DNA of 43,312 nucleotides from a virus (lineage: Duplodnaviria; Heunggongvirae; Uroviricota; Caudoviricetes): positions 1 through 43,312 of the IMG/VR virus record IMGVR_UViG_2565956616_000006; one strand, written 5' to 3'. Positions 29,466 to 42,776 of this stretch are shown here, one piece after another. The position numbers were made by a program, and so were the translations under genes. The notes beneath the pieces were generated by a model that was not told the origin of the DNA, made no database searches, and saw only the letters and a list, made by a program, of their open reading frames with translations. Numbering within the stretch: position 1 is the stretch's first letter; each line of letters begins with the position of its first letter.

Positions 29466-29568
29466 ATCAGTGAGTAATATCCATACAGTATACCACTGTA
29501 TAACACTGTTATACGCTCAAATATCAGCCAGAAAATAACGGACCAATCACAAAGCTATCGCTGTGTTG

Positions 29569-29695
29569 TTGGTTCAGAGCTGGGCTGTGTTGGTTCAAAA
29601 TGAGTTGATGTTGGTTCAATATTTCAGAAAAAACACAATAAAAACAACGATCTTTACAAATTGAACCAACTGAACCAACTGAACCAACACCTTTT
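29569..29695. repeat. Iteron origin candidate 2 (crr-like), an inverted copy of the 21113-21230 cluster
   Basis: TTGGTTCA(G/A) at 29569, 29590 and 29611. AT-rich spacer. Three tandem TGAACCAAC at 29662-29688. Positions 29652-29695 are the perfect reverse complement of 21113-21156. Confidence 0.75.
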
Positions 29696-29724
29696 TGCTT
29701 ATCTATATAATCTGAGAGGCAGAA

Positions 29725-30012: not shown

Positions 30013-30272
30013 TGCTCTCTCTGTTTTGGCAAATTACCCCTCACTTTGAAGGGATCGGAGCTATAAAAATGGTGTTATCCGGCTTCCTGCATTGCAGGTT
30101 TTCGAAAGAATCAATGGGTTAGGTTATCGTGCAAATTTGCACTCTGCCAGCCAACGCAATTTCTCGTTGGCGGAAATATCAGGTATTTACTGAACGAACG
30201 GTCTACCCGCCTGTTCAACTACCAGTTGTACATGGCTGCTTTATGTGCAAATGGTGGTGAGAGAAAATTGTT

Positions 30273-30293
30273 TGGGGGTACTTTTGGGGGTAT
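30273..30293 (+). repeat. Arm-type repeat pair TGGGGGTACTTTTGGGGGTAT at the right end of element 2
   Basis: 20/21 identical to 11964-11984, same orientation. Confidence 0.7.
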
Positions 30294-30354
30294 CTCCAAA
30301 GATGTAACTGGAAAATGTCTTTATATATCAATGTATTTTTATTGTTTGTTTTGT

Positions 30355-30372
30355 TCCTATTATCGGCACCAT
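30355..30372 (+). repeat. att core copy 2 (junction of element 2 and element 3)
   Basis: TCCTATTATCGGCACCAT, identical to the cores at 11834 and 42759. Confidence 0.9.
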
Positions 30373-30975
30373 CAAGAAAATCAATAACTTAGCTTAACTT
30401 CTCTAAGAAATTGTATCTTCTGTTATCACTTACAAACGCCTATACGTTGTTATGGGCTTTGGTAGTGTAACACGTATGGGCGAGTAGTTCCCAGGCTCAA
30501 CCTCGTAACAAGTTCCTTTGAAGCTGGAAGACGTGCCACCGTCTCTAAACCTTCTACCAAAACTCTTAGCAAGATGTTCCACACCTGGCGCGGTGTCCAA
30601 TGATGCCACACGTCGTGAGACGTTGCAGAGGATAAACAGGCTAAATGATGGGAAGAGTTTTAAGTGCAATAGTGGATTAAAGCCCACCTCTTCAAAACCT
30701 AACTTGATCGGGAAAGAATCAAGCTCTAGCACGGTTTCGTCCACCGGAGTACAACGGGTGCCTGATAAGAGAAGAACTGCTAAGACTTCATAGCTTTTGT
30801 GAAAAAGCCCTTTTAGTGGATACGCCTACGGCGCTTATTTTTTGGTATAACCATCAAAGGCGCTTTATGGCTCCTATTGTCTTGAAAATGTATCTTTACT
30901 TGTATTGTGTTTTATGCGTAGTCTCCCTGTGTAGTATGTAACTTGTTAATTTTCATATGAATACAGAGGCACACG

Positions 30976-31134
30976 ATGAAAAACATTGCAGCTATCAAAC
31001 GTAATAACCGCAAGATTCACGCTCGTAAGTTCCTGTCTACGCCAGAAGGAAAAGCCTGGCTAGAGCGTAAACAGAGAGAGAACGAAGAAAGAAAACTCCT
31101 TAGTGAGTTGAAATGGCTTAGAGAGGATTTCTGA
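30976..31134 (+). CDS. Possible small basic protein, 52 aa (below the ORF-track cutoff)
   Basis: ATG at 30976 with GAGG 7 nt upstream. MKNIAAIKRNNRKIHARKFLSTPEGKAWLERKQRENEERKLLSELKWLREDF. Imperfect hairpin and T-run downstream. Confidence 0.35.
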   Translation: MKNIAAIKRNNRKIHARKFLSTPEGKAWLERKQRENEERKLLSELKWLREDF

Positions 31135-31299
31135 AAATCTCCAGAACGCAACAGGGCGCATTCTAACGCTGTTTTCATTGCTCGGTATAGGGATGTATAG
31201 GTGATGTGTGTTTAATGCGTCTGTGAGCTTGTTTTATGTCTTATTTTGCATTTTCATAATGCAGGAGAGAACACGGAAAGCCTTAAAATTAATTATTGG

Positions 31300-31464
31300 G
31301 GTATTTAAGGCTATTTTTAGGGTATTTAAGGGTATTAAACTTGATTTAATTGATTAAAATATAAACAGATAATTATGTATCTTATTGATTTATAAGGTTA
31401 TTTTTAAATAAAGGTAAATAAAAAATAAATAGCCATAAATAGCTATAAATACATCTAAATACCT
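31300..31464. repeat. Iteron/AT-rich block: GGTATTTAAGG x2 (+1 degenerate, +1 inverted) and four tandem 10-bp ATAAATA(G/C)C(C/T)-type repeats
   Basis: GGTATTTAAGG at 31300 and 31321. GGTATTAAAC at 31331. Inverted CTAAATACC at 31455. 10-bp tandem units across 31425-31464. Confidence 0.6.
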
Positions 31465-31478
31465 ATATCCCTTCCCTT

Positions 31479-31886
31479 ATGGCTAGATTGCGAGAGGTGC
31501 TTAACGCGATTTTTAGCGCCCCCCGATCTGGAAAATCCAGAATCCCCAAATATCAGCAAGGAATTTTCTTGCGTAATCAACATCGTTTTTACCTATTAAA
31601 TCATTACACAGAAAGCCTTTCTGTAATGTCTCTCACTAAACTTTCACTAAACACGAGAATGATCGGTTTTATGTCGGATCAGATGCTAGAAACAGCACCA
31701 CGTCTCACAAGGGCTGTAAGCGATGAAACCAGTGTTTATGCGGGTGCAGGTCAAAATATAGGCCAAAGTCCATTTAACATAATAAACGTAATATGCACTA
31801 AGGAACACATAGAACGCCTTGAGTTGATGTATAAGGGGAAAAGTGGTGGATTTTTTTACGTAGGAGCACGAGAGGGCTTCTATTGA
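31479..31886 (+). CDS. Doubtful ORF, 135 aa
   Basis: Open frame only. No SD, no recognisable family, and it starts inside the repeat block. Confidence 0.2.
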   Translation: MARLREVLNAIFSAPRSGKSRIPKYQQGIFLRNQHRFYLLNHYTESLSVMSLTKLSLNTRMIGFMSDQMLETAPRLTRAVSDETSVYAGAGQNIGQSPFNIINVICTKEHIERLELMYKGKSGGFFYVGAREGFY

Positions 31887-32267
31887 CTTTTGTATGCTAT
31901 GAAATATAATAGAAGGTTTTTATTTTTATGTTGATAGTGATTGCACATTAAAGATTGAAAGCAAATTTAAACATAAATTTTCAACACGTGAAAGAACTTG
32001 TTCGACAAATGATAGAACGTTTATTGAGCAACAATTTTGCAGTGATGCGCTATATGCCGCATAACATAAGGCTTTGCTGATGATGACGCAAAAGTGAAGA
32101 AAGCTAACATTGCACTTTTTAAGCTACTTTTCATTGGATTTTTACGTAGGAATTACACAGGGATTAATCATCAATTACATTGAATTTAAGCCTGTTTTAG
32201 ATGTTTAATTTTGGTAGCAAGAAACACTTTTAGAAGATCATTGCACAGATGTTATGTGATAAATGGA

Positions 32268-32426
32268 TGTAACGATGGGTTACATTCAGCTATCTGAAAT
32301 ACTCTCTGTAAGAAATTTGGTAGTAACGATTCGTTACATAGACTAATTATTGAATGTAACGATATTACACATCGGTAGTAACGATTCGTTACATCGGCAG
32401 ATGATTGGTTGTAACGAAAGGTTACA
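32268..32426. repeat. Array of five 17-bp palindromic sites (T/A)GTAACGA-N3-(G/C)GTTACA
   Basis: Sites at 32268-32284, 32322-32338, 32355-32371 (right half degenerate), 32377-32393 and 32410-32426. Start-to-start spacings are 54, 33, 22 and 33 bp. Confidence 0.8.
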
Positions 32427-33149
32427 CAATAAGACTAACATCTATAATACTAATAATAAAACTAACTATTAAACTATATAATATAATTCTTTTTTATCTT
32501 TATAAGAATAATTATAGGGATACCCGTTAGGGAGTCTAACGACTATCCCTTAATCTATTGGCATTCGCCAGAACCTTGCACAAGTTAGAGTGTTAGTCGT
32601 TAGACTGATACTTCTCATAACACATAGTTTTTTGTTTGTTGATGTTAGTTAGTAGATCTATGTTCGCTAATGCCGCTCACAACGAATATGTAATCTACTA
32701 TGTGCAAATAGCCTACGGCTTGCGTAAGGCTAAATAGTCTATGCGCTGTGCGCTTCAATAGTTCCATTGATGAGGCTTACGCCAATCTAACGATCATCAA
32801 TCTATTTAAGAGAAAATCTATTGTGCAATACTCTGACGAGTGCAATAACCTTGTGTGCTACGCGTTAGCGATGTTAGCACATAGACACAGACAACAACCA
32901 ACAACAAACAAAAAAGAAAGAATGGTTTTAGTAGTTGAAGGTTAAATAAGATTCTACCGCTTAAATCAAGCCTCTGGCGAGCTAAACAACCTCTACATAA
33001 GGGAATGTATTGTTTTTATCAAATACCTCGTTAGAACGCGTTTTAGAGCGTTTTAGAGAATAAGGAAGAATAGGAGCACTCGTAAGAGCACGAATTGCTA
33101 AGAAAAATTATAACACACTGAAAATGATCAATATTTTTATGGCCAGGGG

Positions 33150-33178
33150 TTGACAAAAGCTTTTAGTTATGGTAAAGT
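33150..33178 (+). promoter_or_regulatory. Sigma70-like promoter of the element-3 small-gene operon
   Basis: TTGACA (33150-33155), a 17-bp spacer, then TAAAGT (33173-33178). Confidence 0.6.
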
Positions 33179-33232
33179 AATATTAGGGACAGGAAAACAT
33201 TCCTATCCTCTAAATAATTAAACCAATGCACC

Positions 33233-33275
33233 GCACTTTGAAGCCCAAGAGGCTTGCAAGGTGTCTTTTTCTTTT
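33233..33275 (+). terminator. Leader hairpin plus U-run (attenuator, or the 3' end of a ~90-nt leader RNA) between the promoter and the first gene
   Basis: Outer stem 33233-33239 with 33258-33264. Inner stem AAGCC-CAAGA-GGCTT. Followed by CTTTTTCTTTT. The SD AGGAGG of the first gene lies at 33290. Confidence 0.5.
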
Positions 33276-33301
33276 AACCAAATAGAATAGGAGGTTAATT
33301 A

Positions 33302-33484
33302 GTGAAGTATTTCACTTCTCAAGATGTAGTTGAAGCCTGGAAACGTGGTGAGATCAACCGCTTTAGGGTAAGAATGAATAGGAACACAGCGCGACGCTGT
33401 GGTTATCCAGAGCGTGAAAAATGTTTTGACGATGCACTGAAAATTATTGATGAACTGCGTAAGGCAGGAGCAGAGAAAGAATAA
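33302..33484 (+). CDS. Hypothetical small protein, 60 aa (GTG start)
   Basis: AGGAGG 6 nt upstream. First gene of the operon. Confidence 0.55.
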   Translation: MKYFTSQDVVEAWKRGEINRFRVRMNRNTARRCGYPEREKCFDDALKIIDELRKAGAEKE

Positions 33485-33505
33485 TAACAGGAGAAGGAGA
33501 AAACT

Positions 33506-33673
33506 ATGAGCGAAACCAAGAAACCAATTCCACGCACTTACCTACACGTTGACCCTGAAATTTTCAAGATTTTATTTGCTGAAGCCAAGAAAAGGCAAAT
33601 TATGGTCAGTGATTTGATGTTAGAAATCATTACTGAAGCAGCAGAGAACATCAAACAAAAAAAGGGTAAGTGA
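33506..33673 (+). CDS. RHH (CopG/Arc-like) small DNA-binding protein, 55 aa (below the ORF-track cutoff)
   Basis: ATG at 33506 after GGAGAAGGAG. MSETKKPIPRTYLHVDPEIFKILFAEAKKRQIMVSDLMLEIITEAAENIKQKKGK has a strand, helix, helix layout. Confidence 0.55.
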   Translation: MSETKKPIPRTYLHVDPEIFKILFAEAKKRQIMVSDLMLEIITEAAENIKQKKGK

Positions 33674-33726
33674 TCCTCATTCACTTTAGTAGCGCATTAA
33701 GCGTGATTTATAAGGAGATAATTCTA

Positions 33727-34407
33727 ATGTCTAAAATTAAATTGATTCGTGAAAAATACCAGTATGTTGATCAACAAACAGGAGAAATTAAAGACCGAAC
33801 TTTGAATATACCACACTACTTTTGTGAGATTGAATTCATCTACTCCTCAAATATTGAGGATGGAAAAGCGAAGTTTAGTGCAGAAATGCAAAAATTATAT
33901 TGCTATGTTTCAGATTGGGAGAAATCAGGGGGGATATGTTTTGAAACACAAACGAAGTTAAGTAAAGTTTGTGGCTGTAGCCGTAAGACAGTTAATGAAT
34001 TGATTGGTCTTATGATTAAAATCGGTCTTTTAGAAGAGGTCGGAGAACGAATCCCAAAACGTCCATTAAAATTACGTGCGCTACCTCTCACAGATGCACA
34101 TATTACCCCCCCTAGAGAGTCATCACTACCTGATCCTTCTGAGAAAGAAAACGAATCTAATGAAATATTGAATGTTTCAGAAATCATCGTTGAAGAAGAA
34201 ATACAGGAATCAGAGTTCCCTGAGCGGCCCGAAATTTTTACTTGGCTTCTTTCCCTTGATAAGAAGAAACCACCGCACGAAGAAACAGAAGATTTTGTAA
34301 AACGAGCATTAGATTCAAAGAATATCTATCTTTGTGAAAATGATTTTGACTCTTTGATAATTGATCTCAAAAGTGAGAGCACAATATATGATTCACTACC
34401 CTTTTAA
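33727..34407 (+). CDS. Winged-helix DNA-binding protein with an acidic C-terminal half (possible replication initiator/regulator), 226 aa
   Basis: ATG at 33727 after AAGGAG. Central T.LSKVCGCSRKTVNELIGLMIKIGLLEEV is wHTH-like. The ORF-track start at 33670 is an extension. Confidence 0.55.
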   Translation: MSKIKLIREKYQYVDQQTGEIKDRTLNIPHYFCEIEFIYSSNIEDGKAKFSAEMQKLYCYVSDWEKSGGICFETQTKLSKVCGCSRKTVNELIGLMIKIGLLEEVGERIPKRPLKLRALPLTDAHITPPRESSLPDPSEKENESNEILNVSEIIVEEEIQESEFPERPEIFTWLLSLDKKKPPHEETEDFVKRALDSKNIYLCENDFDSLIIDLKSESTIYDSLPF

Positions 34408-34416
34408 GGAGAATAA

Positions 34417-34686
34417 ATGGCTTATAACATCACTATAGGAAACAAAACTATTGAAATAACTGAGAGCGGATACCACATTTTAAAAGCTATTTTGGAAATA
34501 GAGTTCTCACCGCCGACAGTGGTTAGCTTTTGTAGTTTAGGCGGCTACAGCGCACAACACGTGAATCATTGGTTAAACCATTTTACATCGTTCGGTGTGC
34601 TGGATTATGAAGGGATTAACCACACTACATTTCGTCTTTTGAAATTAAACAAAGATTTTGAATTGTTTATCACAAACAATCAATAA
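34417..34686 (+). CDS. Hypothetical protein, 89 aa (possible wHTH)
   Basis: AAGGAG SD upstream. Same operon. Confidence 0.55.
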   Translation: MAYNITIGNKTIEITESGYHILKAILEIEFSPPTVVSFCSLGGYSAQHVNHWLNHFTSFGVLDYEGINHTTFRLLKLNKDFELFITNNQ

Positions 34687-34782
34687 CAACAGATCGGGCA
34701 ATACATATGGCAAATGCATTTATGGCGATATTCATCGTAACTATGGCATTAAGTTTTTATAATCCACATAAAAAGAGGGAAA

Positions 34783-35169
34783 ATGGGAAAAAAGAAACGT
34801 AATAACTTAAAACGTATTGAAAAAAACAGTAACTTCAATTCAACAAGACAACGTCCACCGACACATACCAATAACGAAATTCCAGGGGAAGAGATAATCT
34901 TCATTTTAGAATCTAACAGCCCACCACTTACAAACGAAGAATTAGAAATTATTCAATCAATGGGTGATGGTGTGTATTTCAAACCCAGAACAAGAAAGAC
35001 AACGATTATAGAACCTGGCACATTAAAGAAATGGCAGCTGTTAAATTTTACCAGCTACAGGCACTATATCGGTTTTAATAGTTTCAACAATCAGGTAGGC
35101 GGCGTTACAGAAACAGATCTGATGCAGCACCTGATCGACACTCTCGCATCTAACAAACGTTCAAACTAA
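34783..35169 (+). CDS. Hypothetical protein, 128 aa
   Basis: AGAGGGA SD upstream. Same operon. Confidence 0.55.
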   Translation: MGKKKRNNLKRIEKNSNFNSTRQRPPTHTNNEIPGEEIIFILESNSPPLTNEELEIIQSMGDGVYFKPRTRKTTIIEPGTLKKWQLLNFTSYRHYIGFNSFNNQVGGVTETDLMQHLIDTLASNKRSN

Positions 35170-35186
35170 AAATAAAAGGAACAACA

Positions 35187-35390
35187 ATGATCGACCATAT
35201 ACAGGAAACACAATTATTTCAGATGATCCTGTCTGATGCAAAAAACTATGCTGAGTTAATTCGGCTGGCAAAAGAAACAGAAGACTACGAAGCATTAGAG
35301 CGTTATCGTGATGAAGTGCTGACGCTCAAGACACCTTTTAACATCGTATTGAATATGATTAATGATGCATTACAAGGAGAAGCCGCATAA
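35187..35390 (+). CDS. Hypothetical helical protein, 67 aa
   Basis: AAAGGA SD upstream. Same operon. Confidence 0.55.
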   Translation: MIDHIQETQLFQMILSDAKNYAELIRLAKETEDYEALERYRDEVLTLKTPFNIVLNMINDALQGEAA

Positions 35391-35698
35391 TGGAAGAAGA
35401 TATTAGCAATGCAATGGAACAACTTTTAGATCTGACTATCTCACTACAAACAAGAATAAATCAAGCCTATTCAGATTTATGCGATTACACGCTCTCTCAA
35501 TGCGTTATTAGCTTAATGAAGGTGAATGTAAGCCTTGACGATTTTATCTCTCTGGGGAGCGGTTTAGAGCTATCAGAGGACAATGCCAGGCTGTGCACTC
35601 AAATCATCACAGACACCGCAAGCACGTTAAAGGCTGCAAGTGAAGAGATTCAGCAATTAGTAAATGATTTAGCAAAAAGTGCTATTTCTTCTAAGTGA
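35390..35698 (+). CDS. Hypothetical helical protein, 102 aa
   Basis: TAATG coupling with the upstream gene. Confidence 0.55.
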   Translation: MEEDISNAMEQLLDLTISLQTRINQAYSDLCDYTLSQCVISLMKVNVSLDDFISLGSGLELSEDNARLCTQIITDTASTLKAASEEIQQLVNDLAKSAISSK

Positions 35699-36605
35699 TA
35701 ATGAAAATCATTTGCATTTATAACAATTTCATTATATAATGAAATTAGGGGTAGATAAAAAGGTTTTGACTGGTGTTAATCCTTCTACTGTCATAAATCC
35801 CTGCATATGGAAGGTGATAGCCTCAAAGGTTGAGTGGCATTAACCTCTAACAAATATTACCTTCCATCTCTCAAGAAGTTTTAGAATAATCATAACTCCC
35901 TCTTTGATTGTTGATTGTTTCTACGTTGTGTTGATGAATGTTGTTAGGCATTGTGCTTAATTTTGATAAAAGCGGGTAGGTGTTATCTCCTTGCCCTTCC
36001 CGCTATTATTTTTCATCTATGCTTATCCTAAAGCTCCTTATTTTGTCCGAAAACATTAAAGAGCCTTACACTGATAGTTATATTTTATAACTATTTACTA
36101 ACATCATTAAACTCTTATTTAATGACGGAAGTTAGTAACAGAATAATCTATTAAGTTGTTGTCAAAAAACTATCATCTGCATAGCGTTAGCCGCAAGTAG
36201 AGAGAGTTTAGTTAAGAATGGTGCAATAAACTTTGGAAATATTGATAGCAAAACTAGTTTTATAGAATGCGGATCTATAATCTTTGGTTGTAAAAACGAT
36301 TTTCTGAAACGGTAGATTACTGTTGGTGTAGTTAATCATTATTAAAAATTTAATCTGTGAGTAGATTGGAATAGTGATTCCTTAAAATCTGACTGGTGCA
36401 TCCACACCATGAAAGATAGCGGTTGGCCACCGCGCCCCGAATAGATATTCCTGATTGATTCCGCATGTTTTCCTAAGAGCATGTTTTCAGGAGTATCTAT
36501 TCACCCTTTAAGCATATCATCAAGTATATTTAAAAAGTGTATTTGCTGATATGTTTAATCCTCTTATAGTTTAACTTATCAATTATGTAATTGCCCGCAC
36601 GTTAA

Positions 36606-36655
36606 AGCCCCTTTGCTGGTCAGAATTAACCTCTTACGGCATTGGGGCTTTTTAT
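36606..36655 (+). terminator. Long-loop rho-independent terminator ending the 35.7-36.6 kb non-coding stretch
   Basis: AGCCCC-N32-GGGGCT followed by TTTTTATTT. Confidence 0.55.
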
Positions 36656-36683
36656 TTGTCTGGCACTAACAGGAACGTTATTT

Positions 36684-36881
36684 ATGAAACAAGAAATGAT
36701 TATCAGCAAAGACGGGGAAACGATGATTGTTAGTGATGAAAACCTCATTAAGGTTGCCGCACTGTTGGGAGTTACTCCCGAAAGTCTTCGTTCTACCACT
36801 GCTCAATTATTTAAATCGGCTGATGCGGTTAGTCTTGCTGATGCCCTTAAATCTAAAATTAAACAACTGAAAGGAAAATAA
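36684..36881 (+). CDS. Hypothetical small protein, 65 aa, first gene of the capsid-type cluster
   Basis: ATG at 36684. The ORF-track TTG start at 36642 lies inside the terminator stem. Confidence 0.45.
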   Translation: MKQEMIISKDGETMIVSDENLIKVAALLGVTPESLRSTTAQLFKSADAVSLADALKSKIKQLKGK

Positions 36882-36885
36882 TCTT

Positions 36886-37269
36886 ATGGCTAACCCATAT
36901 GGAAAATTAAAAGCAGTGAATGCGGATAACTCCCGTTCACGCTGTAAGGTAGTAGCTTACGCTGCTGATCCAGTGCTGCAAGATCGCCTCGTCAAACTGG
37001 CTTCACCTCTCACTGACGATCTTATTGTCGGGGCTTTGCTGAAAGCCGATGGCACCAAAGCAACAACCGCATCTGATATTGCTCACGTAGTAGTTGAACC
37101 GGCTTATGAAGGACAGGAAAGCGTAGTGGTTGCACATCCTACTTTCGTTATTCTGGCTGAAGATGGGATTGAATTTAACAGCATGGAAAAGGCAAGTGTT
37201 ATTGCAAAACTGCAATCTCTCGGCTTTGTAATTGCTGGTTATGAAGAACTTGCGATCCCTACGACTTAA
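36886..37269 (+). CDS. Small protein immediately upstream of the capsid candidate, 127 aa (possibly decoration/scaffold-like)
   Basis: Size and position mirror lambda D relative to E. AAGGA SD upstream. No confident sequence motif. Confidence 0.5.
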   Translation: MANPYGKLKAVNADNSRSRCKVVAYAADPVLQDRLVKLASPLTDDLIVGALLKADGTKATTASDIAHVVVEPAYEGQESVVVAHPTFVILAEDGIEFNSMEKASVIAKLQSLGFVIAGYEELAIPTT

Positions 37270-37283
37270 CAAGGAAAATAATA

Positions 37284-38315
37284 ATGAATGATTTATCAAC
37301 ATATTTTGGCGTTAATACTGCGGTAGTAACTCCATTTGCTTATGAGAATGCACTTAATACCCTGATTACTAATCTCGATCTGTTCGATGTGCAATATCAT
37401 ACAGAAAACAGCATTCTTCTTACCGACCTGATTGATCAGTTTGTGCAGGTAGCTGGGGAAACCTCGCCTTACGCTCAAAGCGACTGGAACGCCTCTAAAC
37501 GTCAGGAATGGTCAAACAAACTTTTCCAGATGAAACACGTCGGCAGTATTAACGCTGTTACTTCTCGTGACCTGGAACAATACAGCCGCCAATATCCAAA
37601 CCGTTCTGATGCTATGCTGGTAGCGGTTAATGATTTCTCTGAGGCTCATTACCGTTCACACGCAAACCGTGTTGAAGTGGATCTGATTACCGCGCTGCTG
37701 GGCCTGAAAGTTGAATCTGAATATGCCGGACAAGGTGATCTCGACTTCCTCGACGGTCAGGCTAAAACCACGGTACCCGCTATCGACTTTGCATCGACTA
37801 CTGTTAACCCGTTCCTTGCTATTCGTAAAGCGGTGCGCTTACAGAGTGAAAAGCTGGGGTCTGGTCTTGCTGCAAAGCGAACTGGTGTAATTATCTTTGC
37901 TGCTGGCACTGCTGCTGATGGTTTGTCATCTAACCCGCTGATCAGTGACATGGTGAAATATGCAGGCGATGCGAGTGCTACGGCCCTGTTTACCCGTATG
38001 GTTGATTCTAACCCAGCCTATGACTCTTTCCAGATTGGTGGGATCACTGTTATTGATGTGTCAATGTTTCCTGAGATTGTTGCTCACATCGGAGAGAACG
38101 GTTTCGCAATTGTTCCGGTAATGGATAAAGCGGCACAGTGTTACCAGCTTCATAGCGGCGTTGGTGTGCGTCATGCTGAGTTAGGTCAAGATGCCGTGTT
38201 GCATCACCAATATCTAATCAAGGATGAATTCCAATTCCCATCTGTGGTTACTGAGACATCTTATCTGCCAGTAAACAACATTCCGCAAGCTATCATCTTC
38301 GGATCTGCTGCGTAA
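37284..38315 (+). CDS. Major capsid protein candidate, lambda gpE-like (Phage_cap_E-type), 343 aa
   Basis: Length (lambda E is 341 aa). The overall pattern resembles E-family proteins: a central ...E.DLITALLG.... block, then IDF....NP...I...V.......G.......II..A.TAA..L..NP. Strong SD and its own terminator. Needs HHpred. Confidence 0.55.
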   Translation: MNDLSTYFGVNTAVVTPFAYENALNTLITNLDLFDVQYHTENSILLTDLIDQFVQVAGETSPYAQSDWNASKRQEWSNKLFQMKHVGSINAVTSRDLEQYSRQYPNRSDAMLVAVNDFSEAHYRSHANRVEVDLITALLGLKVESEYAGQGDLDFLDGQAKTTVPAIDFASTTVNPFLAIRKAVRLQSEKLGSGLAAKRTGVIIFAAGTAADGLSSNPLISDMVKYAGDASATALFTRMVDSNPAYDSFQIGGITVIDVSMFPEIVAHIGENGFAIVPVMDKAAQCYQLHSGVGVRHAELGQDAVLHHQYLIKDEFQFPSVVTETSYLPVNNIPQAIIFGSAA

Positions 38316-38350
38316 TAAAGCGTTAATAGACGATTCCCCATCGGGGCAAT

Positions 38351-38419
38351 AAGGGTAAAGGGATTAACTAACCTGTAGGCGCAAATACAGTAACGAATCT
38401 CTTTGCCCTTTTTGTTTTT
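38351..38419 (+). terminator. Long-loop terminator after the capsid candidate
   Basis: AAGGGTAAAG (38351-38360) pairs with CTTTGCCCTT (38401-38410, one G-U pair). Followed by TTTGTTTTT. Confidence 0.5.
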
Positions 38420-38466
38420 CTACTGTCTACAAACCCAAATAAAAATATATATGTGAGAGAAAACCA

Positions 38467-38679
38467 ATGAATACAGAAAACCCACAATCCTTTATTCTTA
38501 AGGCTGTAAAAGAACTGGCAGCTATTAGCGAGGAATCAGTTATAAACACATCGGCGCTTTGCCGCCTTTTAGAAATTGATGCAAATAATGTGCGCCAGCG
38601 TGTCTTTCAGACTGGGTGCAGCACTTTCGAAGCAATTCAATACTATTGCTCTAAAAACAATAATAAACAACAATCATAA
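38467..38679 (+). CDS. Hypothetical small protein, 70 aa (HTH-like)
   Basis: SD GAGAG upstream. NTSALCRLLEIDANNVRQRV looks like an HTH. Confidence 0.5.
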   Translation: MNTENPQSFILKAVKELAAISEESVINTSALCRLLEIDANNVRQRVFQTGCSTFEAIQYYCSKNNNKQQS

Positions 38680-38697
38680 TACAGGGAAACAATTAGC

Positions 38698-40539
38698 ATG
38701 TTAGACCTTACCGTCAGCCGCTTATCAAACGTTGTCACCTTCCAGGTTGATCGACCATCATTAGAGAAAGCAAAAGCAGAAGTAGAAAAACTTCGTAAAC
38801 AAATGGCGGCTGTGAAAGATATAGAATTGCGTGTTAAGACACATAAACAATCAACCGCTAAAGCAAAAAAAGACGTAGACGATATTGCTAAAAAGCAAGC
38901 ACAGGCTGATAAAGCTAATGCTAAAGCACAATTAGCCGCTCAACGTGTAGTTGCAAGAGAACAAAAAGCCCTGGCAGCACGCAAAGAGAAGGCAGAATTA
39001 AAGCTTTTAGACGTTGGATCAAGCATTAGTGCAATGCACCGTCTTTCTGTAGCGGAACAATATAAAGCTATTGCACAGGCTAGAGAAATTGCCCTCCAAT
39101 ATGAAAGAGGCGCTATTAGTCTGGCACGTATGAATAGCCAAATGAAACGCCTACAACAGCAACAACGTAAGATTAATGGCAATCGTAACGCTCACGCTAA
39201 AGCCTATGCACCTGTTAAGGGTAGCGGGAGTATTGGCGGCGGTGCTGCGGCTGTTATGCTGGGTGGCTTAGGCGCTGGCGCTGCATATATGGCTATGAGC
39301 AAAGCCTCTGAATTTGTTACTAACAGCTTTGCCAGTGCTGAAACGCTGGGAGAATTGTATAGCCGTGCGAAGCTGGGCGGTGTAGACGTTAACCAGATGA
39401 ACAATATTGAGCAATGGGCCTACAAAAACGGCGTTGATTCAATGATGGGGGATCAAGGTAAACGTAAGTATCTCGATCAGATGAAAGATGTACGGGAGAA
39501 GGCTACTAAATCTTATGATGAGGCTGAATATGTAGTTGATAAGAAAACTGGTAAAGGAGAATGGAAGGGCGGCGATAGCGGCATCAATACTTTAATGAAT
39601 GAAGGATTCTTAACTAAAAAGGATCTAAAAGACTTTGCTGATAATCCGGCTGGTCTGGTTAGTAAAGCAGTTCAGGGAATGGTGAAGAAAGGCTATTCAG
39701 ATGCACAAATCGGTAGTCGTCTGGAAGATCTGGCTGATGATTTGATGCTCACCTCTAAATACTGGACACGCTCCGCTAAAGAAGTGGAACAATCAGCACG
39801 AGAACAACGAGAATCAGGGCGCTGGGTAACACAGGCACAACAGGAAAGCGTTATTAAATTCCGTGAACTGAATAATGCACTTAGTGGGCTTTCTGACTCA
39901 CAAGGGATCGCCTTTGTTGATGGCTTTATGAAATCTCTTGATCCGAAAGTGATTGAAGAGTTTAAAAAGAGCATGGTTGCAATGCTGCCAATGTTTACCA
40001 AATTAGGCGAGGCTATCGGCGGATTGGTTAACGCTGTAATGAAAGCAATCAACTGGCTGATGAAAAACGACGAGAAGACGGCAGCTATTCAGAAGAATTT
40101 AGGTGATGCACCGCCACTATCTAACGAAGGAATGAAGCAGAATCTTTCTAATCTCACTCCTGATCAATATAAAGGCGCTGGCACCGGAACAATTAAGCCA
40201 GATAACAGCAATTCCCTGGTTAACACTATTAAAAGCTGGTTTATGCCAGAAGAAACGGTAGGTGGGGCGCAGGCTGTAAATCAATACAGTCTCGAAGGAC
40301 AAAACATTGCAAATCTGAAACAGAGTGCAGCACAACAAGCTTTCAAGGCTCCTTCTTACACCTTTGCGCCTGTTATCCACTTCAATCCAGAATTACAAGT
40401 AAATGCAGAAGTGCCGCTAACTATCGAATCAGACACCGGACGATTGAGCGAATTTATCGACTTCAAATCAAAGGCATCCTCCGCTGAGTTTAGCAAGCTA
40501 TTAACGCTGGGTGTTATGTCAGGCGGGTCAACCTATTAA
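38698..40539 (+). CDS. Tape-measure-like protein, 613 aa
   Basis: Lys/Ala/Gln-rich coiled-coil N-terminus. Gly/Ala hydrophobic segment GGGAAAVMLGGLGAGAAYMAM. Long helical remainder. Followed by a Dit-like gene, as in siphovirus tail modules. Confidence 0.55.
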   Translation: MLDLTVSRLSNVVTFQVDRPSLEKAKAEVEKLRKQMAAVKDIELRVKTHKQSTAKAKKDVDDIAKKQAQADKANAKAQLAAQRVVAREQKALAARKEKAELKLLDVGSSISAMHRLSVAEQYKAIAQAREIALQYERGAISLARMNSQMKRLQQQQRKINGNRNAHAKAYAPVKGSGSIGGGAAAVMLGGLGAGAAYMAMSKASEFVTNSFASAETLGELYSRAKLGGVDVNQMNNIEQWAYKNGVDSMMGDQGKRKYLDQMKDVREKATKSYDEAEYVVDKKTGKGEWKGGDSGINTLMNEGFLTKKDLKDFADNPAGLVSKAVQGMVKKGYSDAQIGSRLEDLADDLMLTSKYWTRSAKEVEQSAREQRESGRWVTQAQQESVIKFRELNNALSGLSDSQGIAFVDGFMKSLDPKVIEEFKKSMVAMLPMFTKLGEAIGGLVNAVMKAINWLMKNDEKTAAIQKNLGDAPPLSNEGMKQNLSNLTPDQYKGAGTGTIKPDNSNSLVNTIKSWFMPEETVGGAQAVNQYSLEGQNIANLKQSAAQQAFKAPSYTFAPVIHFNPELQVNAEVPLTIESDTGRLSEFIDFKSKASSAEFSKLLTLGVMSGGSTY

Positions 40540-40586
40540 TCATCACTGTGGGGCTGTTTAGCCCCCTTAAATAAGGATTACAAATT

Positions 40587-41255
40587 ATGGCAATGGGTCC
40601 GTTAACCATTGGTCGCCCGACTGAGGCGAAAATCAACAGCACAAGCAACGATAGAACAACCAAAGGGGGTAACGGCTTTGCGATCATTACCTCTAACCTC
40701 GGCAGTGGTGCAAATGCTGCTTACAATGACTACCAGGCATTATCATTTGATAGCGTGGAATCGACGAAAGTTAGCCGAAATGCAGACGTTACAAGCTATG
40801 CCGTCGAATCAGGATCAGAAGTTAGTGATCATGTTCAAATACGGAATAACAAGTTCACATTACAGGGGCGTATCTCTGAAACCGTATTGAAGCTCAATCC
40901 CGATATGATTAAGAATGCGGGAATTAACGGCAATCGACGTATGCTTATGCTTGAATACCTAAATCAGTTGATGGACAGTCGCCAACCTTTCCTACTTGTC
41001 ACTGAGTTAAAAAATTATGACAACGTTGTGTTAGTTGGCATGTCTTATGAAGAAGAAGCAAGCGAAAGTCTATTGTTTACTCTTGATTTTGAGCAAATCC
41101 GTCTTGTCTCTAAAGCAACTACAAGCGCAATTGCGGTAAAAACAGCACCAAATAAATCTGTAGGGGGACAGGTTAAAATGCAGGTAAATACAACAGAACA
41201 GAAAAATCAAAAAAGCCCAGGGCAAGACGTTGTAACGCCAGTATTTAAACAATAG
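40587..41255 (+). CDS. Dit-like (distal tail/baseplate-type) protein candidate, 222 aa
   Basis: Motif ADVTSYAVESGSEVSDHVQIRNNKFTLQGRISE resembles the pattern (t.hpvE.G..isDh....p..l.l.g.is) remembered for Dit-like N-domains. Position after the TMP-like gene. Confidence 0.45.
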   Translation: MAMGPLTIGRPTEAKINSTSNDRTTKGGNGFAIITSNLGSGANAAYNDYQALSFDSVESTKVSRNADVTSYAVESGSEVSDHVQIRNNKFTLQGRISETVLKLNPDMIKNAGINGNRRMLMLEYLNQLMDSRQPFLLVTELKNYDNVVLVGMSYEEEASESLLFTLDFEQIRLVSKATTSAIAVKTAPNKSVGGQVKMQVNTTEQKNQKSPGQDVVTPVFKQ

Positions 41256-41296
41256 CCTTAAACGCCTATGAAACGCTCTGTAACGATGTAATTATA

Positions 41297-41330
41297 AAAG
41301 AGGCCACCAATCTATGTTGAAGCCTCTTTA
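41297..41330. terminator. Bidirectional terminator between the convergent Dit-like and integrase genes
   Basis: AAAGAGGC-N17-GCCTCTTT flanked by A/T runs. Confidence 0.5.
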
Positions 41331-41336
41331 TTGCGC

Positions 41337-42701
41337 CTATGGCGTTGTTTTGCGCCTTAAATTTGATTTTTTATTGATTGATAAGCCTTTCTCTATTTCA
41401 GGGTAGCGTAGAAGCTCAATATAGTTTTTAAGCTCTACTGGAGAAGCTGCATTCTTGCTATATGTGCGGAATGTCTCTGTATTGCCGCGTGTATGGCCCA
41501 GGAGAAGGGCGATCCTGTCTTCTGGAATTTGATTTCGATCAAGAAGCTGTGCTACTCCGTGTCTCAGAGAATGAAACACTTTCCTTTCTGTTCCCTTTTC
41601 CCCTAAAGCCTTTCGTTTAGCTCTTGTAAATCGTTGTGTATGCCACGTAGAGCGTTTACCGTCAGCACGCTCTGTAATGCTGGCGTGATAGAACAAAAAG
41701 CCATTGTGAGGCTTTTCACGAAGAGATAACACCAATGGAGTGATAAGGCTATGCACAGGCACAAGACGTGCCGCAGCTTTCGTCTTTCCCTGTGTGATTT
41801 CAAAACACAGCACACCTTCGATCTCTTTCACATCGTCTATTGTGAGACTTGCTATCTCATTGATCCGCATACCTGTATATAAACCGATAAGACACAAAGC
41901 CATCATTTCTTTGTTTTCTGCTGAATTACCGGAAAATACTTGCAACACCTGCAATAACTCTTTGTTAGAAAATGCCTCGTAGCTCTCTCTACTTTGTGCC
42001 ACATCAAGCCTATGCCCTCGCCAGGGGGAGAGCGCCCTTTCTGGCGCATCGTGGTAACGTGATGAAGCTAACTCCCATAGCTGGGCCATTGGGCTGATAT
42101 AATTTGCAATTGATTGTTGTGAAAGGGTTTTTTGCATGTGTTCAATCCAGCCTGTAACAGTGGTGCGGCTTACATCTTGCAATGCAATATCAGGCTTTTT
42201 ACGGTAGGAGAGAAACATCTCTACCGCTTTTCTTGCCTTAGCTAAAGTGGCTGGCTTCTTCTTCGTGCTGTTAATTGTCAGGTAGATTTCAAGAATTTTA
42301 AGCAATGACGGACACGAAGACGCTGTATCTTGCATTCTGGTAGCTGTTTTGGCGTATTTAGCCTTACTGCGTAACAGTTCCAGCGTGTTTTCTATTGTGC
42401 TGTTTACAGGGGCAACACTCTCCCGTAAGCAATGGTATTCATCTGCAATCTGATCACGCTTTCTACGTGCAACACGAAGATTACTTGTGTGCAGACTTCT
42501 GACAAACGTCCTTTTTCCTTCAAAAAAGGGCTGCATATACACAGGCAGCGTGATCCTTAAATAGTAGTTACCGTAAGAATCACAGATTAAGTATTGGTTA
42601 GGCTTGTATCTCATAAAATCTCCGGCTAAAGTGTCGGAGCGTTTGTAATGTGAAAATTGATTGTGACGCATAGAAAATGATGATTTTTCTATAAGATTCA
42701 A
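41337..42701 (-). CDS. Tyrosine recombinase/integrase of element 3, up to 454 aa (the true start may be the internal MRYKPNQY...)
   Basis: R (GMRINEIASL), HSLRH, LLGH and the Y of a C-terminal tyrosine-recombinase domain. Abuts att core 3. This is the same relative layout as intF-ptwF at the distal end of E. coli K-12 CP4-6 (from memory). Confidence 0.85.
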   Translation of the reverse strand: MNLIEKSSFSMRHNQFSHYKRSDTLAGDFMRYKPNQYLICDSYGNYYLRITLPVYMQPFFEGKRTFVRSLHTSNLRVARRKRDQIADEYHCLRESVAPVNSTIENTLELLRSKAKYAKTATRMQDTASSCPSLLKILEIYLTINSTKKKPATLAKARKAVEMFLSYRKKPDIALQDVSRTTVTGWIEHMQKTLSQQSIANYISPMAQLWELASSRYHDAPERALSPWRGHRLDVAQSRESYEAFSNKELLQVLQVFSGNSAENKEMMALCLIGLYTGMRINEIASLTIDDVKEIEGVLCFEITQGKTKAAARLVPVHSLITPLVLSLREKPHNGFLFYHASITERADGKRSTWHTQRFTRAKRKALGEKGTERKVFHSLRHGVAQLLDRNQIPEDRIALLLGHTRGNTETFRTYSKNAASPVELKNYIELLRYPEIEKGLSINKKSNLRRKTTP

Positions 42702-42758
42702 TCAATTAGTAATGGTCGTAGGTGATGGCATTAACACGAGATTAATCGAGTGTTTTAC

Positions 42759-42776
42759 TCCTATTATCGGCACCAT
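42759..42776 (+). repeat. att core copy 3 (distal junction with the chromosome; tRNA 3'-end pseudo-fragment)
   Basis: ACTCCTATTATCGGCACCATT (42757-42777) matches 21 nt around copy 1. Confidence 0.9.

Follow-up and report, generated by a model that had tools for sequence, protein, structure and literature searches.

Element, boundaries and gene content

The window, a 43,312-nucleotide stretch of viral DNA, carries a 12.4-kb island at the thrW tRNA gene (30373–42758; Table 1). The island is AT-rich, with a G + C content of 40%. It is flanked by 18-bp thrW direct repeats and encodes its own tyrosine integrase, as the sequence-only reading had proposed. An identical 12,386 bp is present in E. coli E2, alone between tRNA-Thr(cgt) and LysR pseudogene/paoD, where the attL junction adjoins an intact tRNA-Thr.

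Table 1. Features of the element, with positions in the window.
Feature	Position	Strand	Remarks
attL core, 18-bp copy of thrW 3' end	30355..30372	+	TCCTATTATCGGCACCAT; direct-repeat family D2
52-aa ORF by attL	30976..31134	+	Annotated CDS in E2
Swappable non-coding cassette	31130..31995		Carries helper-specific terminal-repeat mimic
46-bp mimic of inner boundary of phi92-type left direct terminal repeat	31482..31527	-	93–96% identity
Iteron cluster	32258..32426		5–6 copies of TGTAACGAnnnGTTACA; directly upstream of -10-like TATAAT
60-aa protein, first gene of left operon	33302..33484	+	Annotated CDS
55-aa protein	33506..33673	+	Near-identical in two virulent phages
Rep-like winged-helix protein, 226 aa from ATG	33727..34407	+	ORF start 33670; HTH_36, PHROGs
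Four small genes (89, 128, 67, 102 aa)	34417..35698	+	Annotated CDS
Hairpin, then T-run	36604..36651	+	Inverted repeat I5, direct sequence reading; just upstream of capsid genes
65-aa protein upstream of capsid genes	36684..36881	+	Annotated CDS
127-aa protein	36886..37269	+	Place and size of phage head-decoration protein; 12 loci
Major capsid protein, HK97 fold	37284..38315	+	Lambda-E / PF03864 class; profile and structure matches
70-aa protein with helix-turn-helix-like motif	38467..38679	+	Family alignment
Tape-measure protein, 613 aa	38698..40539	+	Homologue of phi92 gp134 and phAPEC8 TMP; profile and structure-entry matches
Tube initiator (Dit_like), baseplate-hub protein, 222 aa	40587..41255	+	phi92 gp135 homologue; profile matches
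Tyrosine integrase, 425 aa as annotated	41337..42614	-	ORF reaches 42701; PF00589 3e-17, DUF6538
attR core	42759..42776	+	Second TCCTATTATCGGCACCAT copy; direct repeat

The largest ORFs encode 613, 454, 343, 245 and 222 aa. No candidate for a portal, TerL, protease, tube or sheath is present in the ORF list; all of these except the sheath had already been reported missing. Small terminase, Rpp/Ppi-like protein, excisionase and recognisable inducer-sensor were not identified in the element, which tells against the satellite reading given below. About 3.7 kb is without annotated CDS (30373–30975, 31135–33301 and 35699–36683) and is repeat-rich, in agreement with the ~3.4 kb of such DNA first noted.

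In the left operon PGAP annotates seven CDS, not the eight counted earlier. The 60-aa protein is conserved (Klebsiella 64%, Raoultella 43%; dN/dS 0.03–0.2). The 55-aa protein is a probable regulator, judged by its sequence pattern. Family searches gave no match for the 52-aa ORF or the four small genes. The 52-aa ORF accompanies thrW-type elements of other genera, with 76–78% identity in Citrobacter, Kluyvera and Raoultella loci; family-wide conservation is seen for the 128-aa protein (8 loci, 7 genera, 33–47% identity). The hairpin upstream of the capsid genes is possibly a terminator or antitermination control point. Hairpins are also visible 3' of the capsid and tape-measure genes, but a terminator scan found 12 against 10.1 expected in shuffles, that is, no better, and the statement that several genes have their own terminators is not confirmed in that form.

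Virion genes, their conservation and their relatives

The capsid protein belongs to the PF03864 class, and both the lambda-E-type assignment and the predicted HK97 fold hold. Its top structural matches are the phage capsids of ICP1, phiTE and the lambda-E class, with ICP1 best. Its similarity to the phAPEC8 capsid is weak (BLASTP E 5e-4) and runs colinearly through the N-terminal 185 aa; dN/dS is 0.05–0.31. The 127-aa protein (dN/dS ≤0.18 in the 12 loci in which it is conserved) is possibly a decoration protein, to judge from its position and from low-scoring colinear hits against phage decoration proteins with E of ~0.07 (hhalign E 0.065, PHROG 2680 E 0.068). Its AF2 model is unusable (pLDDT 42). 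The 65-aa protein has a positional equivalent in every locus; identity is 58% in L007, and the Klebsiella and Yersinia equivalents align only weakly. It does not resemble the protein encoded 5' of the decoration gene in the phage. Its role as a small scaffold is speculative.

The tape-measure protein, so described from the beginning, matches PHROG 16051 at 1e-31 and phi92 gp134 (PDB 21vq_V) at 5e-22. It is colinear with the phAPEC8 TMP from the first residue (2e-23), is 24–31% identical to its Stephanstirmvirinae/phiTE counterparts and evolves with dN/dS of 0.14–0.20. Alignable homologues, present in 11 loci, are 613–634 aa long; Yersinia L017 has a 600-aa positional equivalent. Since the protein is nearly phage-length (613 against 659–662 aa), a change of tail length, suggested earlier, is unlikely as its purpose. 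The 222-aa protein matches PF21821 (1.7e-27), phi92 gp135 (6e-52) and the phiTE 'tube initiator' (3.5e-10). The Dit-like call needs correcting: the protein forms the tube-initiator ring in the baseplate hub of a contractile tail. It is 49–53% identical to Phapecoctavirus proteins (dN/dS ≤0.11), and its gene is confined to the elements of E. coli and Phytobacter. The phiTE tube initiator is a hexamer that makes up the first ring of the tube on the hub, and the C-terminus of the tape-measure protein is buried in that hub (PMC11972413). The 70-aa protein has a conserved L..LC.LL....N.VRQR motif in the family alignment and dN/dS of 0.14–0.22. It was considered as a homologue of the phage 72–82-aa pre-TMP protein and rejected, no alignment being obtained.

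The same architecture is found in at least 11 genera in all, with 29–56% capsid identity and intact ORFs, at tRNA-Thr or tRNA-Gly. Related loci occur in Klebsiella, Citrobacter, Buttiauxella, Kosakonia, Phytobacter, Kluyvera, Scandinavium, Raoultella, Yersinia and a second E. coli lineage. The recurring layout is small genes, 65-aa class ORF, 127-aa gene, capsid gene, HTH protein gene, tape-measure gene, optional tube initiator gene and reversed integrase gene. Of 5426 complete E. coli genomes, 761 contain the element at least in part and 135 contain at least 80% of it; carrier strains include E2, D7 and O104:H4. Nine IMG/VR contigs with its capsid gene are 20–58 kb long and appear to represent host or prophage surroundings instead of 12-kb genomes from particles, a point against the satellite reading.

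A G + C content of 40%, the ~3.7 kb without annotated genes and the incomplete virion gene set resemble a remnant. That a temperate relative of the rV5/phi92-type phages is decaying here, keeping a few structural genes by chance, is nevertheless very improbable. The same subset is kept in the same order, every structural gene has a dN/dS far below 1, and among the 10 genome loci, 9 IMG/VR loci and listed E. coli matches none has a fuller phage complement. The 'non-coding' stretches, moreover, contain organised iterons and the mimic of a phage end. The recurrent architecture and dN/dS of 0.05–0.3 rule out decay.

More than 100 Stephanstirmvirinae genomes give matches to the tape-measure protein and the tube initiator, and the gene order of the element is a colinear subset of the phAPEC8 virion module. 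With the Stephanstirmvirinae (phi92, phAPEC8) and Vequintavirinae phiTE module the element shares homologous tape-measure, tube initiator and capsid proteins and the order decoration, capsid, then tape-measure, then tube initiator. It lacks the portal, protease/scaffold, adaptor, neck, sheath, tube, chaperones, other baseplate proteins and fibres of that module. Because the tail genes are homologous to phi92 gp134/gp135, they originate in ~150-kb virulent myoviruses (Stephanstirmvirinae), not in siphoviruses. The likely helpers are virulent 145–150-kb Stephanstirmvirinae myoviruses, phi92-like and phAPEC8-like, in place of the siphoviruses or lambdoid phages first supposed.

Terminal-repeat mimic, Rep/iteron pairs and exchange with phages

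The phi92 terminal repeat occupies 1–343, with an exact copy at the right end. The 46-bp mimic corresponds to phi92 318–363 and thus straddles the repeat/unique boundary; the same position is matched in many Justusliebigvirus genomes. The window has a single occurrence, and none arose in 100 shuffles. It is GC-rich (55%), with AT-rich phased repeats on its flanks. The mimic is a candidate packaging or terminase site, provided that the terminase of these phages acts at the repeat boundary, as is assumed here from the way the phi92 ends are annotated in GenBank. The other boundary of the helper repeat has no mimic in the element. Sister elements (L018–21, L023–26), whose capsid proteins are 99–100% identical to the present one, have at the same place an unrelated ~1350-bp cassette, which matches the Phapecoctavirus terminal-repeat boundary and straddles position 328 of WPEC4. 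Most likely, the present copy is keyed to phi92-like Justusliebigvirus and the sister copies to phAPEC8-like Phapecoctavirus. Klebsiella elements give weak matches only to the terminal repeats of their phages.

The Rep-like protein matches HTH_36 at 1.4e-4, below the Pfam cut-off, and replication-initiator PHROGs 270, 1032 and 391 at 1e-5 to 2e-4. It is a putative initiator binding the iterons, and the iteron cluster a putative origin or operator. Every change of the Rep-like DNA-binding domain is accompanied by a change of iteron sequence; four iteron types accompany four domain types (window/L024, L018/L007, L019/L022 and L021). Rep-like protein and iterons are a modular pair.

The 55-aa protein is 98% identical to inny_185 and muut_153 (95–97% in DNA). 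The phage protein inny_184 is chimeric. Its domain 1 is 88% identical to the N-terminal 140 aa of the Rep-like protein, its domain 2 is 91% identical to the Rep of variant L018, and its C-terminal domain matches endonucleases (PHROG 681, 4e-18; Pfam MUG113, 2e-4; T5 homing-endonuclease-like ORFs). Protein muut_154 combines domain 2 with a domain 69% identical to a sequence of the Citrobacter locus L010 (12334–12675), outside the capsid-to-integrase module of that locus. An inny_184-type protein with at least 80% coverage is found in only 4 of 99 matching phage records, and the nuclease is therefore an accessory gene in phages. DNA identity of 95–97% over 240–625 bp indicates recent exchange between element and phages; the direction of domain transfer is inferred from distribution alone. 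Some Stephanstirmvirinae phages appear to carry a nuclease directed against the element.

This exchange and the terminal-repeat mimic are left unexplained if the element is an autonomous, portal-less particle producer, encapsulin- or gene-transfer-agent-like, with its own capsid, no helper and incidental tail genes. Its capsid resembles those of phages, and the tail genes are conserved alongside the capsid gene across genera. Such a producer is hardly to be expected.

Satellite reading, known satellites and proposed life cycle

The element probably represents a so far undescribed family of phage satellites parasitic on virulent Stephanstirmvirinae myoviruses; the evidence is computational throughout. 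It is strongest in three features that the sequence-only reading had no means of seeing: the mimic of the terminal repeat, the modular pairing of Rep and iterons, and the chimeric nuclease carried by phages. No description of such an element was found in the literature searched. The preferred view of the sequence-only reading, a satellite supplying selected structural proteins, is strongly supported by the architecture in at least 11 genera and by purifying selection, as is its statement that the gene set fits no P4, PICI, cfPICI or PLE archetype; helper type, 'Dit' identity and tail-length role are revised.

Less probable, though of some weight, is a mobile anti-phage defence island, itself unpackaged, in which the diverged capsid protein, tape-measure protein and tube initiator, made upon infection, would act as dominant-negative subunits that join the phage's own parts and poison head and tail assembly, and the mimic as a decoy titrating or misdirecting the phage terminase. 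The structural genes are homologues of exactly the nucleators of capsid shell and tail core, no terminase-redirecting protein, portal or scaffold is encoded, and the apparent counter-weapon of the phages implies that the element harms them. Assembly interference has a precedent in Tai (PMC11364771). PADLOC, however, found no known defence protein in the element. Integrase, swappable helper-specific mimic and modular Rep/iteron pair are hallmarks of a mobilised replicon, unneeded by pure decoys, and the constant tape-measure length (600–634 aa), full-length structural genes and strong purifying selection across genera fit functional virion parts better than poisons. The satellite and defence readings are mutually compatible, because satellites such as PLE do both.

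PLE uses a serine recombinase, whereas the element has a tyrosine integrase and an enterobacterial host. Both are integrative elements of 12–18 kb, apparently tied to a virulent myovirus. No sequence homology is seen between their genes. PLE remodels the coat protein of ICP1 via an external scaffold; the element encodes its own capsid, tape-measure and tube initiator. In both, the DNA-binding domain of Rep and the origin iterons form modular pairs that can be swapped (PMC8263062). The anti-PLE nuclease of ICP1, Odn/Gp88, is a chimera in which the DNA-binding domain of a satellite Rep is joined to a nuclease domain of T5orf172 type (PMC8263062); the nuclease of inny/muut likewise joins satellite Rep domains to a nuclease domain, but in inny two captured domains are present at 88–91% identity, in Odn one at 42%. 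For PLE, small capsids are the proposed means of keeping out the phage genome (TcaP; PMC10945586), and those of the element would act likewise.

With P4 the element shares an enterobacterial host, a size of ~12 kb, insertion at tRNA genes, a copy of the helper packaging site (cos in P4, a candidate site in the element) and a need for small capsids, the genome being about one tenth to one third of the helper's. P4 uses the helper capsid protein, unlike the element, and its helpers are temperate. Sid, Psu, Delta, Epsilon and alpha primase-helicase are absent from the element in family searches. The cfPICIs encode portal, protease, connectors and terminase and steal only tails from temperate helpers; the element is without these, encodes tail-core proteins and has virulent myoviruses as inferred helpers. 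The cfPICIs with divergent capsid proteins bring their own portal and protease, which counts against the satellite reading.

In the proposed satellite life cycle, helper infection would lead to excision and to Rep/iteron-driven replication on the phage replisome. The helper terminase would recognise the terminal-repeat mimic and cut unit-length satellite DNA of ~12.4 kb. The capsid protein with its 65-aa and 127-aa partners would assemble small shells on the helper portal, of about T=3–4 by volume scaling from the helper's T=13, holding the satellite genome and excluding the 150-kb phage genome. That this capsid protein is only ~21% identical to its helper counterpart speaks against the satellite reading, as it would have to use a portal and scaffold foreign to it. 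Tape-measure and tube initiator would nucleate tail cores, to be completed by helper tube, sheath, baseplate and fibres. Diversion of helper parts would lower phage yield, so that the element would double as a defence. Some phages would respond with the GIY-YIG/T5orf172-type nuclease, whose captured satellite Rep domains would direct it to cut the satellite origin.

Integrative unit, gene content and conservation

The 12.4-kb element at thrW is integrative, carries a selected subset of a virion module, a mimic of a helper genome end and a modular Rep/iteron pair, and has recently exchanged DNA with phages. An 18-bp direct repeat of the tRNA-Thr (thrW) 3' end flanks it. E. coli E2 has the identical 12,386 bp on its own, with an intact tRNA-Thr(cgt) gene on one side and a LysR pseudogene/paoD on the other. 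The repeats and this solitary occurrence define the element as a discrete integrative unit. GC content is ~40%, against ~50% in the flanks. The gene list of the sequence-only reading stands, with seven annotated CDS in the left operon, and so do the absences that it reported: by size and similarity, no ORF of the element fits a portal, large terminase, protease or tube, nor a sheath. An integrase and att sites of its own, with an incomplete virion and packaging gene set, are those of a satellite in the general sense.

Location of features in the window and, where named, in related element loci (L numbers) and phage proteins
Feature	Location	Particulars
P22-like prophage, right end	1-11854	adjoins 18.5-kb element
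gp10-like stabilisation protein	580-1998	P22-like prophage
gp20-like translocase	3863-5278	P22-like prophage
Tailspike	9635-11440	P22-like prophage; head-binding domain
Third thrW 3'-end copy	11807-11854	longer (46-nt); closes upstream prophage
Second integrative element	11855-30375	~18.5 kb, between thrW repeat copies
P4-type integrase	12016-13230	18.5-kb element
Ash protein	15308-16375	18.5-kb element
DUF927/Toprim primase-helicase	18335-21094	18.5-kb element
P22-type ejection protein	22312-22989	18.5-kb element
P22-type ejection protein	22989-24410	18.5-kb element; Inj_translocase 5.7e-58
P22-type ejection protein	24410-26515	18.5-kb element
Abi_2 protein	27973-28995	18.5-kb element
18-bp repeat, left copy	30355-30372	
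12.4-kb element	30373-42758	
Cassette holding mimic	31130-31995	865 bp
Mimic	31482-31527 (minus)	46 bp; phi92 318-363
Iterons	32258-32426	five to six copies of TGTAACGAnnnGTTACA
Inverted repeats	32628-32650; 32893-32915	23 nt
Segment close to L007	32737-32987	250 bp
Unannotated GTG ORF	32748-32945	65 codons
Left operon	33302-35698	seven small annotated CDS
Stretch matching phage inny	33494-34118	625 bp
Rep-like gene	33727-34407	226 aa
Hairpin and T-run	36604-36651	AAAGCCCC...GGGGCTTT
Genes between left operon and integrase, in order		65-aa, 127-aa, 343-aa, 70-aa, 613-aa, 222-aa
Capsid gene	37284-38315	343 aa
Tyrosine integrase	element right end	reversed
18-bp repeat, right copy	42759-42776	
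LysR-domain ORF	42902-43312	runs off window right end
Swapped tail-core allele	L021:11431-..; L023:11433-14066	
T5-like near-end match	L004:5956-6001	46 bp
Relative of muut_154 first domain	L010:12334-12675	Citrobacter sp. NCU1
inny_184 domain 1	residues 1-140	88% identical to window Rep-like protein
inny_184 domain 2	residues 162-251	91% identical to L018 Rep-like protein, 75% to L007
inny_184 endonuclease domain	C-terminal	PHROG 681 3.9e-18; Pfam MUG113 2e-4; T5orf172 0.025
Iteron type	window, L024	TGTAACGA...GTTACA
Iteron type	L018, L007	GGAAATGAGTTCC
Iteron type	L019, L022	CCCnACAGAAnnCTGTTA
Iteron type	L021	GGGGGTAGGTCACTGTGAGCTA

The integrase is the sole protein of the element recognised by NCBIfam. 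PADLOC found no known defence proteins in it. Scans for sigma-70 promoters and terminators gave no enrichment over shuffles, and no late-promoter motif common to the element and the phage module was apparent by eye. The hairpin with T-run lies ~30 bp 5' of the first capsid-module gene and may gate the capsid operon by termination/antitermination. A 250-bp segment is 98.4% identical between the window element and the tRNA-Gly element L007; its flanks are 78-84% identical. It overlaps an unannotated ORF, is accompanied by inverted repeats, and is a candidate small RNA, conserved site or recombination joint. Beyond the right repeat, an ORF joins a few dozen unrelated N-terminal residues to the C-terminal portion of a LysR substrate-binding domain; its RefSeq equivalent is a LysR pseudogene without the N-terminus. 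The LysR gene was probably truncated at or near the insertion point of the thrW island.

Related loci were retrieved via the capsid protein. Those from Klebsiella pneumoniae, a second E. coli lineage (at tRNA-Gly), Citrobacter, Buttiauxella, Kosakonia, Phytobacter, Kluyvera, Scandinavium, Raoultella and Yersinia have the same layout. It comprises small genes, among them that of a conserved 128-aa protein; then a short ORF, the gene of a 115-133-aa protein and the capsid gene (~345 aa); then a ~65-aa ORF and the gene of a tape-measure protein (TMP) of 600-634 aa; and the reversed integrase. Among the retrieved loci the tube initiator is present in E. coli and Phytobacter elements only. Across loci the capsid proteins are 29-56% identical. 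All pairwise dN/dS values are well below 1: capsid protein, 0.05-0.31; TMP, 0.14-0.20; tube initiator, <=0.11; 127-aa protein, <=0.18. Of 5426 complete E. coli genomes, 761 have some or all of the element by megablast and 135 have at least 80% of it; O104:H4 is among the genomes with element-related sequence. Many further E. coli genomes contain mosaic relatives with a diverged capsid gene annotated 'major capsid protein'. The synteny and dN/dS comparisons had been proposed in the sequence-only reading, which argued against simple decay. They agree with it: conservation and selection contradict a decaying remnant, and no relative with a fuller virion gene set, of which the element might be a deletion derivative, turned up among 10 genome loci, 9 IMG/VR loci and the listed E. 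coli matches.

Capsid and tail-core proteins

The 343-aa capsid protein has the HK97 fold, as had been predicted. The window protein has no Pfam match and matches PHROG 29 at 5.5e-5; 8 of 13 members of its family (41-83% identity) match PF03864, the lambda gpE class, with a best E of 1.6e-8. It aligns colinearly with the capsid protein of phAPEC8-type phages at ~21% identity (BLASTP 5e-4). The link to phage capsids came from pairwise BLASTP, family profiles and fold search; tblastn of the protein against 50,697 phage genomes gave nothing at E <1e-3.

The 613-aa protein matches tape-measure PHROG 16051 (1e-31) and phi92 gp134 in the solved structure (21vq_V; 4.7e-22), and aligns colinearly with the phAPEC8 TMP from residue 1. 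Full-length homology to the TMP of a solved virion and a tube-initiator gene directly 3' identify it as a contractile-tail TMP. The 222-aa protein belongs to the Tube initiator/Dit_like family (PF21821; 96.5 bits, cut-off 24.2). It matches phi92 gp135 (5.8e-52), the phiTE tube initiator (3.5e-10) and Pam3 gp17 (7e-4), and is 49-53% identical to its phage homologues. The phiTE tube initiator is the hexameric first tube ring on the baseplate hub (PMC11972413). Given their homology to phi92 gp134/gp135 and to phiTE, both proteins are components of a contractile myovirus tail rather than of a siphovirus tail. The earlier designation of the 222-aa protein as Dit-like is correct as to family.

By tblastn, the relatives of the TMP and tube initiator are encoded in virulent myoviruses of ~145-150 kb, belonging to Stephanstirmvirinae (Phapecoctavirus, Justusliebigvirus), and their relatives. 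The module of phAPEC8_ev052 and phiWec190 encodes a 372-aa protein, decoration protein (130-132 aa), capsid (332-333 aa), adaptor, neck, sheath, tube, chaperone, a 72-82-aa protein, TMP (651-662 aa) and tube initiator (233-235 aa). The element order of 127, 343, 70, 613 and 222 aa is a colinear subset of it. A producer of particles independent of any helper would leave the tail genes and the phage links unexplained. In certain thrW elements (L021, L023), a nearly identical capsid gene is accompanied by a swapped C-terminal third of the TMP and a swapped tube initiator. The swapped allele (TMP 633 aa; tube initiator 218 aa, 54% identical) is ~67% identical to Phapecoctavirus at the DNA level. 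Such a swap beside a near-identical capsid gene indicates that the tail-core module recombines independently of the capsid module.

The 127-aa protein occupies the decoration-protein position and has weak colinear matches to the decoration family (E 0.065 and 0.068), which make it a tentative candidate for a head decoration protein. Its family profile gave noise only against PDB sequences, and its AlphaFold model, built with close E. coli homologues only, was unusable (pLDDT 42). Two further assignments were rejected. The 70-aa protein does not align with the small pre-TMP protein of the phages, a possible chaperone, and its family has an HTH-like motif instead. A resemblance of the 65-aa protein to the C-terminus of the putative phage scaffold did not withstand comparison.

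The neighbouring 18.5-kb element is a satellite-like island. Its ejection proteins are the podovirus counterpart of a TMP and parallel the 12.4-kb element. Its ejection genes and those of the adjoining P22-like prophage share ~74% identical DNA stretches (repeats D1, D3), which makes the prophage a candidate helper of the island.

Genome-end mimic, replicon and phage nuclease

In blastn of the left half against phage genomes, the mimic matches phi92 at 93-96% identity, and the match recurs at the same place in dozens of Justusliebigvirus genomes. The phi92 record has an annotated direct terminal repeat at 1-343, an exact right-end copy of which was verified; the genome ends ...CGCGTTA. Of the 46 matching bp, 26 are the end of the repeat and 20 the start of the unique sequence. 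The mimic is GC-rich in AT-rich surroundings with phased repeats, is unique in the window and occurs in 0 of 100 shuffles. In sister thrW elements with capsid proteins 99-100% identical, an unrelated ~1350-bp cassette replaces the one that holds it. This second cassette contains an 83-bp match to Phapecoctavirus genome ends, covering 273-357 and so straddling the inner boundary of the WPEC4 repeat, measured as 328 bp. Klebsiella elements give weak matches (77-83%, E 1e-3 to 1e-5) within terminal repeats of Stephanstirmvirinae phages of Klebsiella, Salmonella and E. coli. A search for a mimic of the outer repeat boundary was negative. Two independent cassettes copying the same position in two phage genera are hard to explain unless the mimic is a packaging or terminase signal that determines helper specificity. 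The repeat boundary would then be the terminase site of the helpers.

The non-coding left part of the Klebsiella element L004 contains a 46-bp sequence 87.5% identical to near-end sequence of many T5-like Salmonella phages. In several records the matched sequence lies at ~210-520, and in one it falls inside an annotated repeat region. The stretch may be another type of phage-end mimic, or else a regulatory site that element and phages have in common.

The Rep-like protein, a putative initiator, has a winged-helix domain and matches replication-initiator PHROGs (1e-5), with HTH_36 below threshold. Iterons lie upstream of its gene. Across sister elements the DNA-binding domain and the iterons co-vary. 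PLE replicons have the same organisation of Rep domain and iterons (PMC8263062).

Part of this replicon is present in phages. The stretch found in phage inny is 95% identical, and 240 bp of phage muut, like inny a Justusliebigvirus, are 97% identical to the window element (blastn). The inny-matching stretch spans the DNA-binding domain of the Rep-like protein and a 55-aa gene, the product of which is 98% identical to inny_185 and muut_153. The phage protein inny_184 (367 aa) joins two Rep-like domains to an endonuclease domain, which also matches homing-endonuclease-like ORFs of T5-like phages (38.6% identity). Domain 2 and the nuclease domain are common to muut_154, whose first domain is 69% identical to a sequence of L010 that is not part of the capsid-to-integrase module there, an indication that the phage nuclease draws on Rep-like specificities from more than one genus. 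Among 99 phage records with a match, only four cover at least 80% of the nuclease; the listed ones include inny, Mt1B1_P17 and BI-EHEC. Its gene is thus an accessory one in phages, unlike the Rep-like gene, whose position in the elements is fixed.

In ICP1 Gp88/Odn, a T5orf172 nuclease domain is joined to an N-terminal domain with 42% identity to PLE RepA_N; the protein cleaves PLE origins and rescues the phage (PMC8263062). The same architecture, a satellite Rep domain with a T5orf172/GIY-YIG nuclease, is found in inny_184 and muut_154. By this analogy, the likeliest course is that coliphages captured the origin-binding domains of satellites, two together, as weapons against them. Such capture points to satellites that are activated by, and costly to, those phages. 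A pure defence island that works by poisoning assembly would fit with a counter-weapon in the phages, and a defence role may coexist with a satellite role; on its own it does not account for the combination of integrase, swappable helper-specific mimic and replicon.

Proposed life cycle, satellite affiliation and significance

In the satellite reading, helper infection would induce excision and replication of the element, and the helper terminase would cut at the mimic, giving ~12.4 kb units. Indirect evidence for such dependence on a helper comes from the terminal-repeat mimic, the Rep/iteron module and the recent exchange of DNA with phages. Small shells would be built on the helper portal from the satellite capsid protein, possibly together with the 65-aa and 127-aa proteins. 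The shell of phiTE, a relative of the helpers, is T=13 (PMC11972413). By our own volume scaling, (12.4/148)^(2/3) x 13 = ~2.5, a shell of about T=3 would suit a monomer and one of T=4 a dimer. The satellite TMP and tube initiator would nucleate tail cores, to be completed by helper tube, sheath, baseplate and fibres. The TMP is nearly as long as that of the helper; tail length is therefore not the point, and the earlier suggestion of a tail-length determinant is not upheld. Possible reasons for an own TMP are a conduit matched to the small capsid, tails marked for satellite heads, interference with tail nucleation, and evasion of TMP-directed exclusion systems. The complete reading is of widespread enterobacterial satellites of virulent 150-kb myoviruses, with chimeric virions (own small shell and tail core; stolen portal, sheath, baseplate and fibres), packaging by swappable mimics, and dual-specificity helper nucleases (origin-directed, built from captured satellite Rep domains). 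It is offered tentatively, with rather less than even confidence.

The defining gene sets of P4, PICI, cfPICI and PLE are all lacking, in agreement with the misfit stated in the sequence-only reading. P4-like satellites have Sid, Psu, Delta, Epsilon and the alpha primase-helicase. This core set is absent: no ORF of the element has a Pfam, PHROG or NCBIfam match to it, and Rfam, with zero matches at E <=1, revealed no P4-like C4/CI RNA. Classical PICIs have a pri-rep primase-helicase, TerS or Rpp/Ppi redirection and AlpA- or Stl-type control; the element has only the winged-helix Rep-like protein, and no primase/helicase domain, TerS, Rpp or AlpA match. cfPICIs share with the element an own capsid protein but add their own portal, prohead protease, connectors and terminase, of which portal, protease and terminase are absent here. 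PLEs, of Vibrio hosts, have RepA_N, TcaP, NixI and others, and a serine recombinase, whereas the element integrase is tyrosine-type and no ORF has a PHROG/Pfam match to PLE proteins. The element is PLE-like in its probable virulent myovirus helper, modular replicon and putative Odn-like counter-defence. Judged from sequence, the resemblance is functional and not of shared ancestry. By analogy, the element would work most like a PLE and, in its own capsid, like a cfPICI. No description of the element family was found in the literature searched, a scope that excluded subscription-only papers. On computational evidence the element most probably belongs to a new family of phage satellites, which satellite finders built on P4, PICI, cfPICI and PLE gene sets would miss.

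If confirmed, exploitation of virulent coliphages would be demonstrated for a satellite family for the first time. Phi92-like and phAPEC8-like phages are popular candidates for therapy and biocontrol. With element-related sequence in ~14% of complete E. coli genomes and related elements in Klebsiella, Enterobacter and Citrobacter, the family could be a hidden determinant of host range or treatment failure. An own capsid protein without own portal or terminase would be a new answer to the satellite capsid problem. We know of no earlier satellite supplying a TMP and tube initiator, so that this case, if confirmed, would be the first; why a satellite needs its own DNA-delivery conduit would become testable. 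The P22-type ejection proteins of the neighbouring island hint that such a need may be general among satellites. The swappable cassette would pinpoint the likely packaging site of phi92/phAPEC8-type phages, a group in which, to our knowledge, packaging has not been studied before. The two-headed phage nuclease would mean that the Odn strategy evolved independently outside Vibrio, and the 88-98% identities would mark the conflict between satellite and phage as ongoing. If true, E. coli would have its counterpart of the ICP1-PLE arms race, one that involves therapy phages.
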